Source: Edaphocola sp. (GTDB lineage: Bacteria; Bacteroidota; Bacteroidia; Chitinophagales; Chitinophagaceae). From it: DNA of 64,000 bases. Position numbers and translations under genes: made by a program. The notes below the pieces were generated by a model. It saw nothing but the letters and a program-made list of their open reading frames with translations, was not told where the DNA came from and searched no databases. Where the stretch lies: NCBI GenBank assembly GCA_035444785.1, contig DAOMPL010000005.1, forward strand, positions 34,289 to 98,288. Reading direction: 5' to 3'. Of this stretch, positions 28,446 through 33,576 are shown one piece after another (position 1 is the first letter of the stretch; each line of letters begins with the position of its first letter).

Positions 28446-28461
28446 TAATATTGCAATATTA
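28446..28461. promoter_or_regulatory. Perfect 16-nt palindrome TAATATTGCAATATTA, candidate ArsR operator overlapping a near-consensus -7 box
   Basis: Ends 14 nt upstream of the arsR ATG. TAATATTG differs from TAnnTTTG at one position. Confidence 0.4.
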
Positions 28462-28474
28462 AATAAATGAAAAA

Positions 28475-28801
28475 ATGGGTGCAACTAAAACTGAACATTT
28501 TACAGACCAACAAAATCAGATAGCAACGATCGCAAAAGCATTGGGACATCCTGCAAGAATTGCCATCATTGAGCATTTGTTAAAAGTGAATGCTTGTATT
28601 TGTGGCGATATTGTAAATGAATTGCCATTGGCACAACCAACCGTTTCACAACATTTAAAGGAATTAAAAAACGCCGGATTGATAAAAGGAAGCATTGAAG
28701 GAAACGCTATCTGCTACTGTATTGATGAAAACACATTTGAAATTTTGAAAAACAATTTTTCAAAAATCATTGCAACAGTAACGAAACAAAATTGTTGTTA
28801 A
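28475..28801 (+). CDS. arsR: ArsR/SmtB family metalloregulatory repressor
   Basis: 108 aa. LGHPARIAIIEHL, the CxC site in ACICGDIV, the wHTH LAQPTVSQHLKELKNAGLI, and a C-terminal ...KQNCC. Confidence 0.85.
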   Translation: MGATKTEHFTDQQNQIATIAKALGHPARIAIIEHLLKVNACICGDIVNELPLAQPTVSQHLKELKNAGLIKGSIEGNAICYCIDENTFEILKNNFSKIIATVTKQNCC

Positions 28802-28823
28802 TAAACTTTAATTAATAAAAATA

Positions 28824-29663
28824 ATGAACACAGAACAAGAAATCAAAGAGATGGTAAAGCAAAAATATAGCGAAATTGCTTTACAAGACAAAGAAACCAA
28901 CGCTTCATCCTGTTGTGGAGCCGGTGGTTGCAGTACCGAAGTGTATAACATCATGAGTGAAGCATACAACGACCTTGAAGGCTATAATCCGGATGCCGAT
29001 TTAGGTTTGGGTTGCGGTTTGCCCACTCAGTTTGCCAAAATCAAAAAAGGAGATACCGTTATTGATTTGGGTAGTGGTGCCGGTAATGATTGCTTTGTAG
29101 CCAGAGCAGAAACAGGCGAAACCGGGAAAGTAATCGGTATTGATTTTACAGAACCAATGATCAATAAAGCACGAAACAATGCTGAAAAATTAGGCTTCAA
29201 CAATGTGGAGTTTAGACAAGGTGATATTGAAAAAATGCCTGTAACTGCTAATGTTGCTGATGTGATAGTGAGTAATTGTGTTTTAAATCTTGTGCCCAAT
29301 AAACAAGCTGTTTTTGCAGAAATTTATAGAGTTTTAAAACCTGGTGGACATTTCAGCATTTCTGATATTGTACTAACAGGAGCGTTGCCAGAAAAAATAA
29401 AATCTGCAGCTGAAATGTATGCCGGTTGCGTAGCCAGTGCCATTGATAAAGACGAATATTTGAGTTATATCAGCAAAGCGGGTTTTGCTAATATGCAAAT
29501 TCAAAAAGACAAAGCTATTATTGTACCTGACGATATTCTTAAAAATTATTTGAACGATGAAGAAATAACTCAATACAAAGCGAATGAAACGGTTATTAGA
29601 AGCATAACCGTTTATGCAGAAAAACCGGCGGAATGTTGTTCCCAAAATTCGGGATGTTGTTAA
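28824..29663 (+). CDS. arsM: Arsenite S-adenosylmethionine methyltransferase
   Basis: 279 aa. N-terminal SSCCGAGGCS, SAM motif VIDLGSGAGNDCF, SNCVLNLVP and MYAGCVASAI (the conserved ArsM cysteines), and a C-terminal AECCSQNSGCC. Confidence 0.85.
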   Translation: MNTEQEIKEMVKQKYSEIALQDKETNASSCCGAGGCSTEVYNIMSEAYNDLEGYNPDADLGLGCGLPTQFAKIKKGDTVIDLGSGAGNDCFVARAETGETGKVIGIDFTEPMINKARNNAEKLGFNNVEFRQGDIEKMPVTANVADVIVSNCVLNLVPNKQAVFAEIYRVLKPGGHFSISDIVLTGALPEKIKSAAEMYAGCVASAIDKDEYLSYISKAGFANMQIQKDKAIIVPDDILKNYLNDEEITQYKANETVIRSITVYAEKPAECCSQNSGCC

Positions 29664-29673
29664 TGCTTGAACT

Positions 29674-30279
29674 ATGAATAAAATAAGTATAGACAAGTTT
29701 GGAACAATAGGGCTTTTCTTAACGGCAATATTTTCACCTTGTTGTTTTCCCCTATTTGCTTTCGTTGCATCTGCGTTGGGATTGGGAAGTTTTGAACTTT
29801 TCGGAGGATGGACAATGTGGGTTTTTCAAGCAATGGTTTTGGTAAGTATTACCGGGCTAATCATCTCTTACTTAAAACATCGTTGTTTGTATCCACTTTT
29901 AGTGGCCCTTCTAAGCGGTCTTTTGATTTTTTATGGTTATTATTTTAACGATACTGACTATTGGATATACTTTCTTTATGCTGGAATGTTCGGTCTTTTG
30001 GTAGCTACTTTTTGGAATTACAAACAAAACAAAAAGCACGGTTCTTGTAAATCTTGCACCACATACAATGGGAAAACGGTAGAACTTACCTCAACAATTA
30101 CCTGCCCATATTGTGGACACAAGAAGACCGAGACTATGCCTACTAATGCTTGTACGTACTTTTATTACTGTGAAAATTGTAAAACACAAATTAAACCATT
30201 ACAAGGAGACTGTTGTGTGTATTGTAGCTATGGAACCGTAAAATGTCCTCCGATTCAAGCTGATAAAAACTGTTGTTAA
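29674..30279 (+). CDS. MerC-like membrane protein fused to a C-terminal GDCCVxC zinc-ribbon-like domain
   Basis: 201 aa. Four predicted TM helices, with SPCCFPLFAFVASALGLG in TM1 (MerC-like). The soluble tail has CKSC...CPYCG...YYCENC...GDCCVYCSYGTVKCPP and ends ...DKNCC. Confidence 0.65.
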   Translation: MNKISIDKFGTIGLFLTAIFSPCCFPLFAFVASALGLGSFELFGGWTMWVFQAMVLVSITGLIISYLKHRCLYPLLVALLSGLLIFYGYYFNDTDYWIYFLYAGMFGLLVATFWNYKQNKKHGSCKSCTTYNGKTVELTSTITCPYCGHKKTETMPTNACTYFYYCENCKTQIKPLQGDCCVYCSYGTVKCPPIQADKNCC

Positions 30280-30302
30280 TATGGAAGACATTATTACACA
30301 AA

Positions 30303-30539
30303 ATGATAAAGAAAATTATTGTGATTTGTAGCAATAACTGTTGCAGAAATCAAATAGCCGAAGGTTATTTACGATATTTCTCAGAAAACAAAGCAGCCGT
30401 TTACAGTGCTGGGGTTGAAACACACGGAGTAACCGCAAAAACTAGCATGACTATGTAAGAAGAAATTAACAAACAGTTTTAACAAGTAATACAACCAATC
30501 AAAGACTATTGCAAACAGTTTGTAGCGAAAAATTTGTAA
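30303..30539 (+). pseudogene. arsC: Relic of LMW-PTP-type arsenate reductase ArsC (internal deletion plus in-frame stops)
   Basis: MIKKIIVICSNNCCRNQIAEGYLRYF...VYSAGVETHGV keeps the CX5R loop but stops after 51 codons. The same frame continues *EEINKQF*QVIQPIKDYCKQFVAKNL*, resembling an ArsC C-terminus. That is 79 codons in total against about 135 expected. Confidence 0.7.
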
Positions 30540-30586
30540 ACAGAACCTTAGCAGTCAAGCAACGAATGATATTAAAACAAAACAAA

Positions 30587-31039
30587 ATGACCAATAGCAT
30601 AACAATTAGAGCCTATAAAACAGATGACAAAATTGCTGTATTAAATTTAATTAGATTAAATACCCCAAAATATTTTGCACCAGAAGAGGAAGAAGACTTA
30701 AAAAAATATTTAGAAAGTAAAAGAGAACTTTATTATGTATTAGAATGTGACGAAAAAATAGTTGGTTGCGGCGGCATTAATTTTTCTGACGATAAAACAA
30801 TAGCCAAAATTAGTTGGGATATATTTCATCCTGACTACCAAGGTCAATCTTTGGGAACAAATCTACTGAAACACAGATTAGAAATAATTAAATCAAAAGA
30901 CAACATCAAAAAAATCACTGTTAGAACTTCACAAGTTGCCTTCCTATTCTACGAAAAGAATGGTTTTGAATTATTTGAAATTAAAAAAAATTATTGGGCA
31001 GAAGGATTTGACCTTTACAATATGGAATTCAAACAATGA
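30587..31039 (+). CDS. GNAT family N-acetyltransferase
   Basis: Start at MTNSITIRAYK (ATG 30587). YQGQSLGTNLLKHRLEIIK acetyl-CoA motif and ...FYEKNGFE. Confidence 0.75.
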   Translation: MTNSITIRAYKTDDKIAVLNLIRLNTPKYFAPEEEEDLKKYLESKRELYYVLECDEKIVGCGGINFSDDKTIAKISWDIFHPDYQGQSLGTNLLKHRLEIIKSKDNIKKITVRTSQVAFLFYEKNGFELFEIKKNYWAEGFDLYNMEFKQ

Positions 31040-31075: not shown

Positions 31076-31765
31076 TTACAGCAAGCCTTCATCTTTAAAG
31101 CTAGTATAAGAATTTTCGGCAACGATAATATGGTCTAACAGTTCTATGTCGAAGAAAGCGGTTGCTTCTTTGATTCTTTGTGTCAGACTAATATCTGCAT
31201 TAGAAGGTTTTAAATTTCCGGATGGATGATTATGTGCAACAATTATTTTACTAGATAAATTTTGCAAAGCATTCCGCATTAATATCTTTAAATCTACGAC
31301 AGATGCCGTTAAACTACCATGACTAATAAATTCGTGAGCAATCAATCGATGGGAAAAGTTTAAGTAAAGCACCAAAAACTTCTCTGTTTCTAAATCTTGT
31401 AGCATAGGAATAATAAATTTGGCAACCTCTAAACTTGAATCAAACTTTGCTCTATCCAATGTTTCAGTCGAAGCTCTACGTCGTCCTATTTCTAATGCAG
31501 CAGCCAAAGTAACAGCTTTTGCCCTACCTATTCCTTTTACTTCTTGTAATTGCTTGAGATTAAATCTACTCAAAACATGGATATTGTTCTGGGCTTTATC
31601 CATTAGCTCCTTTGCCAAATCAACTGCCGATTTATTTTTAGAGCCGGTGTTTATTAATATTCCTAACAATTCGGAATCAGAAAGAGCGGCAACACCTTTC
31701 AATTCCATCTTTTCTCTGGGACGGTCATCTTCTGCCCATTGCTTTATCGATTTAAAGTGTTCCAT
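31076..31765 (-). CDS. radC: RadC-like JAB domain protein (UPF0758)
   Basis: 229 aa. N-terminal RPREKM...LSDSELLGILI, an HhH region, and the JAMM motif VAHNHPSGNLKPSNAD. Confidence 0.85.
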   Translation of the reverse strand: MEHFKSIKQWAEDDRPREKMELKGVAALSDSELLGILINTGSKNKSAVDLAKELMDKAQNNIHVLSRFNLKQLQEVKGIGRAKAVTLAAALEIGRRRASTETLDRAKFDSSLEVAKFIIPMLQDLETEKFLVLYLNFSHRLIAHEFISHGSLTASVVDLKILMRNALQNLSSKIIVAHNHPSGNLKPSNADISLTQRIKEATAFFDIELLDHIIVAENSYTSFKDEGLL

Positions 31766-31776
31766 AAGCCATATAT

Positions 31777-32877
31777 TTAATTGATTTTATATCTTTTTCC
31801 CGGCAAAGAACTTATCGCATTTGAAAATTCTAGCTGTAATAGCAAATTGGCCAATTCTGTATTATTTAATCCTGTTTTTATTTGCAATTCATCTACATGG
31901 GTCATTTCTTTTTCTTCTAATACTTTAATGATATCCATTTCATTTTTAGAAAAATCAGTAAACAACTTTTGTTGCCAAACTTTTTTCTCTAAAGGCTTTT
32001 CTTCCCAATTCAAATACTGAACTAAGTCGATGGTTTCTGTTATTAGTTGTGCAATATTGGTTTTTATCAAATAATTACAACCTCTGGAGCGGTTATCATT
32101 AAATCTCCCGGGCAATGCAAACACTTCTCTATTATAGGACAGAGCAAGTTTTGCGGTAATCATGGCACCACCTTTTATATCAGTTTCTATTACAATCGTT
32201 GCATCACACAAACCGGCTACTATCCTATTTCTTGAAGGAAAATTTGGTTTATCGGGTATGGTTTTGCTACAATACTCTGTAAGCAAACCTCCATTTTCAA
32301 GCATAGACACAGCCGTTTTCCTATGCACTGATGGATAAATCATATCAAGACCATGAGCTAAAACTCCAATAGTGGGCAAGCCTGCTTCCACTGCGGCTTT
32401 ATGGGCAATGATGTCTATGCCATAAGCTAGGCCACTCACTATAGTTGGCTGATACACTTTTAACTCATCAATCAATTGCTCTGTAAATTCTTTTCCAATA
32501 GTTGTATTATTTCTTGACCCCACAATTGCTATCATCCGCTTTGCATCAAGCTGCATATTTCCTTTGGAATAAAGCACAATAGGACAATCAGGAATTTGTT
32601 TTAATCTTTCCGGAAATGTATCAGATAAATAACCATAGACATTAATATTATTCTTTTGAATAAATTCAAGCTCAGCCATTGCCCACTTTTCGTCAAATCT
32701 TTTTTTCAGACCGGCGATACTGACCACATCTAAACCTTCTACCATTTTCAATTCCTTAGAAGTAGCTTTAAACACAGCTTCGGCACTACCAAAATGCTCT
32801 AGTAGCTTCCTGCCCCGAACATCACCGATGCCATTAATCCGTGTTAATCCTAATAGATAAAATAAATCTTTTTCCAT
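31777..32877 (-). CDS. dprA: DNA-processing protein DprA
   Basis: 366 aa. IAIVGSRN...SGLAYGIDIIAHKAA...GRFNDNRSRGCNYLIK are typical DprA Rossmann-fold motifs. A C-terminal wHTH-like extension is present. Confidence 0.9.
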   Translation of the reverse strand: MEKDLFYLLGLTRINGIGDVRGRKLLEHFGSAEAVFKATSKELKMVEGLDVVSIAGLKKRFDEKWAMAELEFIQKNNINVYGYLSDTFPERLKQIPDCPIVLYSKGNMQLDAKRMIAIVGSRNNTTIGKEFTEQLIDELKVYQPTIVSGLAYGIDIIAHKAAVEAGLPTIGVLAHGLDMIYPSVHRKTAVSMLENGGLLTEYCSKTIPDKPNFPSRNRIVAGLCDATIVIETDIKGGAMITAKLALSYNREVFALPGRFNDNRSRGCNYLIKTNIAQLITETIDLVQYLNWEEKPLEKKVWQQKLFTDFSKNEMDIIKVLEEKEMTHVDELQIKTGLNNTELANLLLQLEFSNAISSLPGKRYKIN

Positions 32878-32952
32878 TTCACCTTTAAAAATAGAAAAAT
32901 ATATTGAAAATAAAAATAATAGATGAAAATTTTATTTAATTTTGTCCACAAG

Positions 32953-33576
32953 ATGTGTTATCACGTATCCTTTTCAAGTAAGAAAGCGTCAATAAGTCAA
33001 GCCTTAGGGTTTGACTTTTCTGAGGACGATAATAAGATACCTAAAGGTATTTTCAATGCTTTCGACTTCCCGACATTAGCAATAATAACAAATGACCCTA
33101 CACAAAGATTACAATTAGCCGAATGGGGTTTAGTGCCATCATTCACATCTAACAACTTCAATAGAGTCAATACTTTAAATGCAAGAATAGAGCATATTCA
33201 AGAAAAAATTTCTTTTAAAAACAGTTTATCCAATAGATGTATTATTCCCATAAGTTCATTTTTTGAGTGGAAATGGTTGGATGGAAAAGGGAAACAAAAA
33301 CAAAAATTTGAGATAAAAGGTGTTCATGAAATACTGTTACTTGCAGGTATATTTTCAAATATGGGTAATCAACTTTCGTTTACTATTATCACAACACCAG
33401 CTAACGAGCTCATGTCCGAAATTCACAATATAAAGAAAAGGATGCCTTTGATATTAACGGACGACAATAAAAACAAATGGCTTCAAGGTGATGATGTAAA
33501 GCTATTTGAGCATTGTGACCCCGACCTAAATGCTCAAGCTTTAGACTTCCCTAAACAGCAACCTACTTTATTTTAA
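32953..33576 (+). CDS. SOS response-associated peptidase (SRAP/YedK family)
   Basis: Start moved to MCYHVSF (ATG 32953) so that the catalytic Cys is residue 2, as in all SRAP proteins. NARIE, FFEW and PANELMSEIHNIKKRMPLIL motifs are present. Confidence 0.85.
   Translation: MCYHVSFSSKKASISQALGFDFSEDDNKIPKGIFNAFDFPTLAIITNDPTQRLQLAEWGLVPSFTSNNFNRVNTLNARIEHIQEKISFKNSLSNRCIIPISSFFEWKWLDGKGKQKQKFEIKGVHEILLLAGIFSNMGNQLSFTIITTPANELMSEIHNIKKRMPLILTDDNKNKWLQGDDVKLFEHCDPDLNAQALDFPKQQPTLF

Follow-up and report, generated by a model that had tools for sequence, protein, structure and literature searches.

Vicinal cysteine pairs near the C-terminus serve as ligands of arsenite (As(III)) or methylarsenite (MAs(III)) in several repressors of the ArsR/SmtB family: the As(III) site of AfArsR is made up of Cys95, Cys96 and Cys102, the MAs(III)-selective site of SpArsR consists of Cys101 and Cys102, and the B. 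subtilis ArsR has the cysteines Cys93/94 and Cys104/105. The metallochaperone ArsD of plasmid R773 bears two such pairs at its C-terminus, Cys112-113 and Cys119-120; transfer to ArsA is a function of its N-terminal Cys12/13/18 site, and the C-terminal pairs have been reported to be missing in many homologs. For the arsenite methyltransferase ArsM, four conserved catalytic cysteines are described in CmArsM (Cys44, Cys72, Cys174 and Cys224), and a disulfide-bond cascade is the proposed mechanism. Here we describe three adjacent genes, encoding an ArsR, an ArsM and a fusion of a MerC domain with a GDCCVxC domain, in a stretch of 64,000 nucleotides from Edaphocola sp. (contig DAOMPL010000005.1; the whole stretch is called the window below). 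All three proteins end in two cysteines directly before the stop codon. We consider it moderately probable that each of these ends is an autonomous vicinal-dithiol site for As(III)/MAs(III) at the protein terminus, and that assembly of the cassette and shared chemistry have brought the three together. The genes and their ends are as follows.

28475-28801, plus strand: arsR, ArsR/SmtB-family repressor of 108 amino acids, protein end ...TKQNCC
28824-29663, plus strand: arsM, arsenite S-adenosylmethionine methyltransferase of 279 amino acids, protein end ...AECCSQNSGCC
29674-30279, plus strand: MerC-GDCCVxC fusion gene, 201 amino acids, protein end ...ADKNCC
28793-28801, plus strand: TGTTGTTAA, Cys-Cys-stop of ArsR
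29655-29663, plus strand: TGTTGTTAA, Cys-Cys-stop of ArsM
30271-30279, plus strand: TGTTGTTAA, Cys-Cys-stop of the MerC-GDCCVxC fusion

Because the gaps between the genes are just 22 bases (arsR/arsM) and 10 bases (arsM/fusion), it is plausible that the three form one operon. A preliminary description of this DNA had noted three consecutive open reading frames (ORFs) with Cys-Cys ends and had labelled them ArsR-like, ArsM and MerC/GDCCVxC; the ORF coordinates and translations bear out the former, and the profile matches in Pfam and NCBIfam agree with the labels. The first protein matches HTH_5 (PF01022; 42.9 bits against a cut-off of 22, E 4.3e-11) and HTH_metalloreg (NF033788; 70.7 bits, cut-off 55), and the second matches PRK11873/NF008823 with 368.4 bits (cut-off 263) over profile positions 2-270 of 272. 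The third combines MerC (PF03203; 67.5 bits, cut-off 27.6, E 1.8e-18, residues 7-117) with the family that NCBIfam names 'GDCCVxC domain-containing (seleno)protein' (NF041374; 96.4 bits, cut-off 40, residues 140-196), and it scores far below the cut-offs of the MerC equivalogs NF033784 (32.2 bits; 140) and NF010318 (30.7 bits; 170).

A cysteine anywhere in the final three residues is found in three of the 60 greedily called genes of the window, which are exactly these three. Among 1231 distinct ORF-genes of 112 related loci, which are cited below by their L numbers, 58 end in Cys-Cys, and four families hold 57 of them: the GDCCVxC/MerC fusions, the ArsR clade, the ArsM clade and DUF6428 (Pfam PF20001). 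Outside these families a Cys-Cys-stop occurs in about 0.1% of genes, and the Cys-Cys tails clearly exceed chance at the protein level. The preliminary description had named loss of the tails from orthologs as the result that would speak against it; for each protein the 120 best database homologs were compared, and the two cysteines are retained at the end of 118 for ArsR (identity at least 83%), 118 for ArsM (at least 84%) and 110 for the fusion (at least 69%), while the residues just ahead of them differ, as in PTTCCSPNSGCC, PADCCSPSSKCC and AAGCCSSKTPCC. This pattern among homologs indicates that the tails are under selection at the protein level.

The three reading frames also terminate in an identical nonamer, to which importance had been attached. 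The identity is real, since TGTTGTTAA occurs three times in the window, both strands included, and always at the tails of ArsR, ArsM and the fusion, but its significance does not hold, as codon bias accounts for it. The window has a G+C content of 34%; TGT makes up 153 of its 208 Cys codons (74%) and TAA 43 of its 60 stops (72%), and from this codon use the nonamer is expected in about 39% of Cys-Cys-stop tails and three times in succession in about 6%. Homologs spell the same end with TGC, TGA and TAG variants (TGCTGTTAA, TGTTGCTAA, TGTTGCTGA, TGCTGCTGA and others). The identity of the nonamers is thus mostly codon bias and not special, because TGT and TAA dominate the window and the codons vary among homologs, and selection acts on Cys-Cys-stop and not on the nonamer. 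A repeated DNA element or a recombination scar behind the nonamers was discarded, since their flanks differ (aaaattgttgttaa, gggatgttgttaa, aaaactgttgttaa) and homologs use synonymous variants. The broader explanation that chance or a sequence artefact (repeated element, scar or coincidence) yielded the triple can draw on the recurrence of one nonamer three times within 1.5 kilobases (kb) and on the AT-rich codon bias, with its chance of triple identity once Cys-Cys-stop is given. We regard it as exceedingly improbable, as the cysteines are kept in homologs despite different codons and stops, as such ends are so rare beyond the four families, and as the bases around each copy are unlike one another; at the protein level it is refuted.

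The proposed check of a common function had been that either all three proteins carry the tail or none does. Our sample for co-variation comprised 80 GDCCVxC genome loci, obtained by scanning the fusion alignment against one genome per species, together with 12 contig look-ups and 10 plasmid ArsM loci. The 80 GDCCVxC loci encode about 20 MerC fusions and about 60 stand-alone proteins of about 68 amino acids, nearly all of which end in Cys-Cys or in Cys-Cys plus one or two residues. The tail is present in at least 75 of these loci with no arsM or Cys-Cys-tailed arsR nearby, and an ArsM-like, Cys-Cys-tailed ArsR or DUF6428 ORF lies within 6 kb in at most five (L007, L018, L043, L060 and L021). 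L060 is the sole locus with an intact adjacent arsM; L007 has a Cys-Cys-tailed arsR 2 kb off, L018 a 201-residue ArsM-like ORF, and L043 an ArsM fragment at the edge of the locus. The usual neighbours are different ones: a MerT-HMA fusion is encoded immediately upstream (position -1) in 39 of the 80 loci and an ArsR-type regulator with no Cys-Cys tail at position -2 in 23, and RND, P-type ATPase, Fur, MerR and CsoR-type genes are also found. The domain is fused to MerT-like N-termini as well, and close homologs of the window fusion lie in two clusters, one of the TonB-receptor/CDF type and one of ACR3/metallophosphoesterase/methyltransferase composition. Because the tail is kept in loci that lack arsM, chiefly beside MerT-HMA, it is a property of the GDCCVxC domain, and the domain in turn serves as a partner to Mer-type thiol transporters across many metal contexts.

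The other two tails are likewise found apart. Cys-Cys-tailed ArsR proteins are encoded in Flavobacterium arsR-DUF6428-arsC operons and in a Chryseobacterium operon of the order arsR-DUF6428-flavin monooxygenase-metallophosphoesterase-...-GNAT-ACR3, in both cases with neither arsM nor the fusion, and Cys-Cys-tailed ArsM proteins with no adjacent ArsR are found beside arsC alone (L113), after a GNAT gene (L116) and next to a radical-SAM gene (L118). Each tail therefore occurs without the other two partners, and strict co-variation of the three is rejected on the GDCCVxC loci, the contig look-ups and the plasmid ArsM loci alike.

Under the explanation that we favour, each Cys-Cys-stop would be a family-intrinsic appendage on a terminal stretch that binds a thiophilic metalloid, and not a member of a co-evolved set; we propose that their joint occurrence arises from the soft ligand that all three proteins handle in common. 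In ArsR, alignment places a CxC in helix alpha3 (C40, C42), a CYC (C89, C91) and the terminal Cys107-Cys108, which follows the predicted helix alpha5. The C40-I-C42 motif aligns with the CxCxxC site of EcArsR (Cys32, Cys34, Cys37) with its third Cys absent (CICGDIV), and the closest solved relatives by sequence are CzrA-type proteins. The As(III)/MAs(III) sensing site is most likely made up, in whole or in part, of the terminal pair, and the alpha3 CxC possibly contributes to it. In a Chryseobacterium ArsR that is 85% identical to that of the window (L087 5001-5327), TCITGD replaces ACICGD, so that C42 of the alpha3 motif is missing while CYC and the terminal pair are kept, which hints that the terminal tail, rather than the alpha3 site, may be the indispensable ligand pair. 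A candidate operator lies just ahead of the gene:

28446-28461, no strand: perfect 16-bp palindrome TAATATTGCAATATTA, 14 bp ahead of the arsR start codon, candidate operator for ArsR

The palindrome has a single match in the window. An identical 16-mer precedes arsR at the equivalent spot in L088-L095 and also in L087, a Chryseobacterium locus with another operon; it is a likely ArsR operator.

The tail of ArsM has the form CC-x5-CC-stop (C269, C270, C278, C279), and tails are borne by about 17 of 150 ArsM cluster representatives (clusters at 50% identity). Residues C64 (GCG), C152 (SNCV) and C202 (AGC) align with conserved cysteines of the solved structures 5evj and 8xt7 in the PDB; the N-terminal C29, C30 and C36 are present too and may include the counterpart of Cys44 of CmArsM. 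The tail most likely captures or buffers As(III) near the catalytic C64, C152 and C202 and would thus be an accessory site. A literature search on ArsM with C-terminal vicinal cysteines found nothing specific to the tail.

The third protein consists of a MerC-family membrane domain, with four helices in the model and SPCCFP in helix 1, and a Cys-rich GDCCVxC domain that is predicted to be cytosolic and ends in Cys200-Cys201. In an alignment of 61 fusion homologs, C23 and C24 (of SPCCFP), C180, C181, C184, C191 and C200 are invariant and C201 nearly so; the whole motif G178-D-C-C-V-x-C184 is likewise invariant. The AlphaFold2 model from these 61 sequences has a mean predicted local distance difference test score (pLDDT) of 62.9, with residues 176-201 below 50, and a sequence search of solved structures with the fusion gave no match at E up to 1. 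The GDCCVxC domain was not found described in a literature search, and a search for MerC together with arsenite gave no direct evidence of arsenic transport. The domain probably receives a metal(loid) from Cys23-Cys24 of helix 1 at the inner face of the membrane, a hand-over that we liken to that of Hg(II) at the cytosolic Cys pairs of MerT and MerF; we place receipt on the cytosolic side because of the domain fusions and gene neighbourhoods of GDCCVxC.

As a separate observation, a stand-alone GDCCVxC protein of a Marinifilaceae metagenome-assembled genome (L054 5995-6330) ends ...QQKESC and then TGA, where its relatives carry the second Cys, and the frame past the TGA stays open into the HMA-domain gene that follows (MKVIKLKIKGMTCSSC). 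The TGA could encode selenocysteine, which would give a Cys-Sec tail, or it could mark a read-through fusion or just a truncated gene.

The three genes recur together. The arsR-arsM-fusion triplet is near-identical on many metagenome contigs (L088-L095, except L091); L091 has the same arsR-arsM pair followed by an uncharacterised protein of 154 amino acids (with a weak precomputed OsmC match), ACR3 and arsC, and a sister arsR-arsM pair, which lies next to relaxase and type-IV coupling-protein genes, is followed by an arsC-like protein of 203 amino acids. In L097 (1-3577) and L100 (1-3577), a closely related pair directly follows the genes for MobC, a relaxase and a type-IV coupling protein, a gene order that assigns the module to a mobile element of the integrative conjugative or mobilisable kind. 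The cassette is mobile and its third gene exchangeable, and arsR-arsM-merC/GDCCVxC represents a recurrent mobile cassette in Bacteroidota.

Ends of the same kind are found on other proteins encoded near ars genes. DUF6428 proteins, of 156-157 amino acids, are encoded directly downstream of Cys-Cys-tailed ArsR in Flavobacterium, Chryseobacterium and Glaciecola and end ...SCSPNSGCC, ...SCTPGGGCC or ...SCAPGGDCC; the end ...ACKPGSGCC also occurs among the loci given below, and proteins ending ...GCC match the Pfam profile through its last position. The tail is nearly the same as that of the window ArsM, although DUF6428 is absent from the window; a literature search did not find the family described. 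Its genes lie at the following positions.

L081, 5386-5859: DUF6428 gene
L087, 5433-5906: DUF6428 gene
L007, 9164-9637: DUF6428 gene
L021, 5460-5930: DUF6428 gene, directly upstream of a MerT-like GDCCVxC fusion

On plasmid pSCD of Sulfuricella denitrificans (L106 364-5665), an ars operon encodes ACR3, a stand-alone GDCCVxC protein, an ArsP-like permease, an uncharacterised protein of 103 amino acids that ends CC-x7-CC-stop (GSCCAPTAKGNSCC) and an ArsE thioredoxin-like protein ending ...CCGCCGKE; ArsM has no Cys tail there, and the Cys-pair tails sit on separate small proteins. On Halobacterium pNRC100 (L108 1873-2420), the 'halo-CC-star' proteins HcsL (...GGGCC) and HcsS (...SDCC) are encoded between arsA and arsR-arsM and match the curated NCBI equivalog families NF041416 and NF041415, respectively; neither family is among the NCBIfam matches of the window trio, and 'CC-star' in the protein sense was not found in a literature search. 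The preliminary description had presumed the shared tail to be undescribed. This stands in so far as our literature search found no paper on a Cys-Cys tail as an operon-wide common feature, but not for such ends as such, as the pairs of ArsD and of the B. subtilis ArsR and the 'halo-CC-star' families are known.

Several points weigh against three autonomous metalloid sites. Every binding and transfer function of the three tails is one that we infer; the model of the fusion, at the pLDDT values given above, is too poor to give the geometry of its tail; the assignment of the ArsR site is uncertain, as the clade also has the CxC and CYC cysteines; and the ArsM tail may be dispensable, by analogy with ArsD, whose C-terminal pairs are absent from many homologs. 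A further point is that tailed ArsM is accompanied by a Cys-Cys-stop ArsR in 8 of 9 distinct loci, and untailed ArsM in none or one of 6. Both proteins are tailed in the window and in L060, L088, L096, L101, L102, L103 and L105, which all have the Bacteroidota-type arsR-arsM pair, and the co-occurrence extends down to about 55% ArsM identity; Fulvitalea (L104) has ...CDCDC in place of the Cys-Cys tail. Untailed ArsM proteins were found in Paenibacillus, Halobacterium, Paraclostridium, Rubrobacter, Streptomyces (ending ...GCGCS) and Criblamydia, and the ArsR adjacent to them has no Cys-Cys tail, save the divergently transcribed Paenibacillus ArsR (...DCCL). This pairing of ArsR and ArsM tails is what functional coupling would produce as well, but it may go back to a small number of evolutionary events, and it does not separate coupling from common descent, because all the tailed loci belong to a single clade that inherits the two genes as one unit.

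In the dedicated thiol relay that had originally been suggested, a MerC-type permease would import As(III), MAs(III) or Hg(II), and its own terminal pair would pass the ligand to the ArsM tail for methylation and then, or in parallel, to the ArsR tail for sensing, through direct exchange between the matching Cys-Cys ends. The tight linkage of the three genes and the near-identical recurrence of the triplet are in line with such a chain, as are the ArsR-ArsM co-occurrence just described and the presence of an ArsM-type ...SCSPNSGCC tail on DUF6428, a further ars-operon protein encoded directly downstream of Cys-Cys-tailed ArsR; the mer systems provide a precedent for hand-off from Cys pair to Cys pair, from MerP to MerT to MerA. 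We nevertheless find a relay rather unlikely, since every tail persists when the other partners are missing, other third genes can follow the same arsR-arsM pair, close fusion homologs are encoded in CDF/TonB and P-type ATPase clusters that have no relation to arsM, and cells normally take up As(III) with no dedicated importer. The observation behind it is real and biologically meaningful, but its interpretation as a hand-off chain overreaches. A looser variant is that Cys-Cys-stop is a portable, interchangeable arsenic hand-off tag, carried by ArsR, ArsM, DUF6428, GDCCVxC/MerC fusions, ArsD and HcsL/HcsS, with any tagged pair able to exchange As(III)/MAs(III). This we consider unlikely; if it were true, the fusion would be a thiol-mediated arsenic importer or MAs(III) exporter, feeding or draining ArsM, and arsenic methylation would follow the import, transform and volatilise logic of the mer operon.

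The tails might instead be redox arms, that is, mobile dithiol/disulfide centres that re-reduce the catalytic disulfides of ArsM or maintain metal-site thiols in the reduced state and do not carry metalloids, much as mammalian thioredoxin reductase has a C-terminal Gly-Cys-Sec-Gly. NCBIfam lists selenoprotein relatives under the names 'arsenite methyltransferase/AhpD domain selenoprotein ... UU', 'methyltransferase/UXPK-star double selenoprotein' and 'GDCCVxC domain-containing (seleno)protein'; selenocysteine substitution is typical of redox-active sites, the disulfide-bond cascade proposed for ArsM would fit as well, and the untailed Sulfuricella ArsM is flanked by both the CC-x7-CC-stop protein and the thioredoxin-like ArsE. 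Such a role seems quite unlikely to us, given that ArsR has no redox catalytic cycle, that ArsD and AfArsR/SpArsR are documented to use the same motif as a metalloid ligand, and that vicinal Cys-Cys disulfides are strained and uncommon. A Rab-like prenylation signal at the C-terminal cysteines was set aside, as cytosolic metal binders make up two of the trio; we know of no bacterial prenylation-type machinery for such ends nearby.

Directly past the fusion stop, the window contains a remnant of a further ars gene.

30304-30458, plus strand: arsC remnant of about 51 amino acids (MIKKIIVICSNNCCRNQIAEGYL...), thioredoxin-type, low-molecular-weight protein tyrosine phosphatase (LMW-PTP) fold

The corresponding ORF (30273-30458) covers just the N-terminal 44-49 positions of arsC profiles and then runs into unrelated sequence, while the related cassettes L091 and L081 encode an intact ArsC of 138-139 amino acids; the 3' end of the operon is truncated in the window. 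The downstream GNAT gene (30509-31039) was rejected as ArsN, with 18.9 bits against a cut-off of 125 for the ArsN2 profile. Beyond the cassette, we read the translations by eye as a RadC-like ORF (31076-31765, minus strand), a DprA-like ORF (31777-32877, minus strand) and an SOS-response-associated peptidase-like ORF (32923-33576, plus strand); SOS-response peptidase genes also flank the arsM loci of Paenibacillus (L107) and Rubrobacter (L110) plasmids.

Arsenic methylation by ArsM governs the mobility and toxicity of arsenic in soils, rice paddies and the gut, and the Bacteroidota cassette lies on mobile elements. The main leads from this locus are the uncharacterised MerC-GDCCVxC fusion within an arsM cassette, which is the most useful, and the tail that ArsM has in common with DUF6428. 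If the tails matter, trimming of seemingly 'disordered' ArsM and ArsR C-termini in enzyme or biosensor work may delete functional metalloid sites, GDCCVxC and DUF6428 would be flagged as thiol-based handlers of arsenic and other soft metals, and the presence of a Mer-type permease in an arsM cassette would offer the first indication that thiol-mediated transport of arsenic is tied to methylation. If they are mere accessory buffers, as the C-terminal pairs of ArsD appear to be, what is gained is an annotation rule and no new biology.

In comparison with known systems, the preliminary description's analogy to ArsR sites built from C-terminal cysteines is apt, as seen in the sites of AfArsR and SpArsR. 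The window ArsR has in common with these two and with the B. subtilis ArsR the ArsR/SmtB fold and, to judge by published site definitions, a vicinal Cys pair after alpha5, a helix that is predicted in the window protein. Its pair forms the very last two residues, with no third Cys about six residues on, unlike AfArsR and rather as in SpArsR, and, unlike these C-terminal-site repressors, it keeps the EcArsR-type alpha3 CxC and an extra CYC. The tail of ArsM shares its CC-x5-CC layout with the C-terminus of ArsD, although the folds are unrelated, that of ArsD being thioredoxin-like and that of ArsM a Rossmann fold; ArsD is 120 residues long and hence also has a Cys-Cys-stop end. HcsL and HcsS resemble the window trio in carrying Cys-Cys-stop ends beside ars genes, but they are haloarchaeal, have no sequence similarity to the trio, and occur with ArsR and ArsM proteins that lack Cys-Cys tails. 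The closest parallel to the fusion is the mer relay, which runs from MerP through MerT, MerC or MerF to MerA; MerT and MerF each combine a vicinal pair in helix 1 with another pair in the cytosol, and MerA uses a Cys pair at its C-terminus. The fusion shares with this relay the MerC domain, the Cys pair in helix 1 and a Cys-rich cytosolic C-terminus, and GDCCVxC is fused to or encoded beside MerC- and MerT-type proteins. Unlike mer systems, the fusion has no merA, merP or MerR gene nearby and is instead seated in an arsR-arsM cassette.

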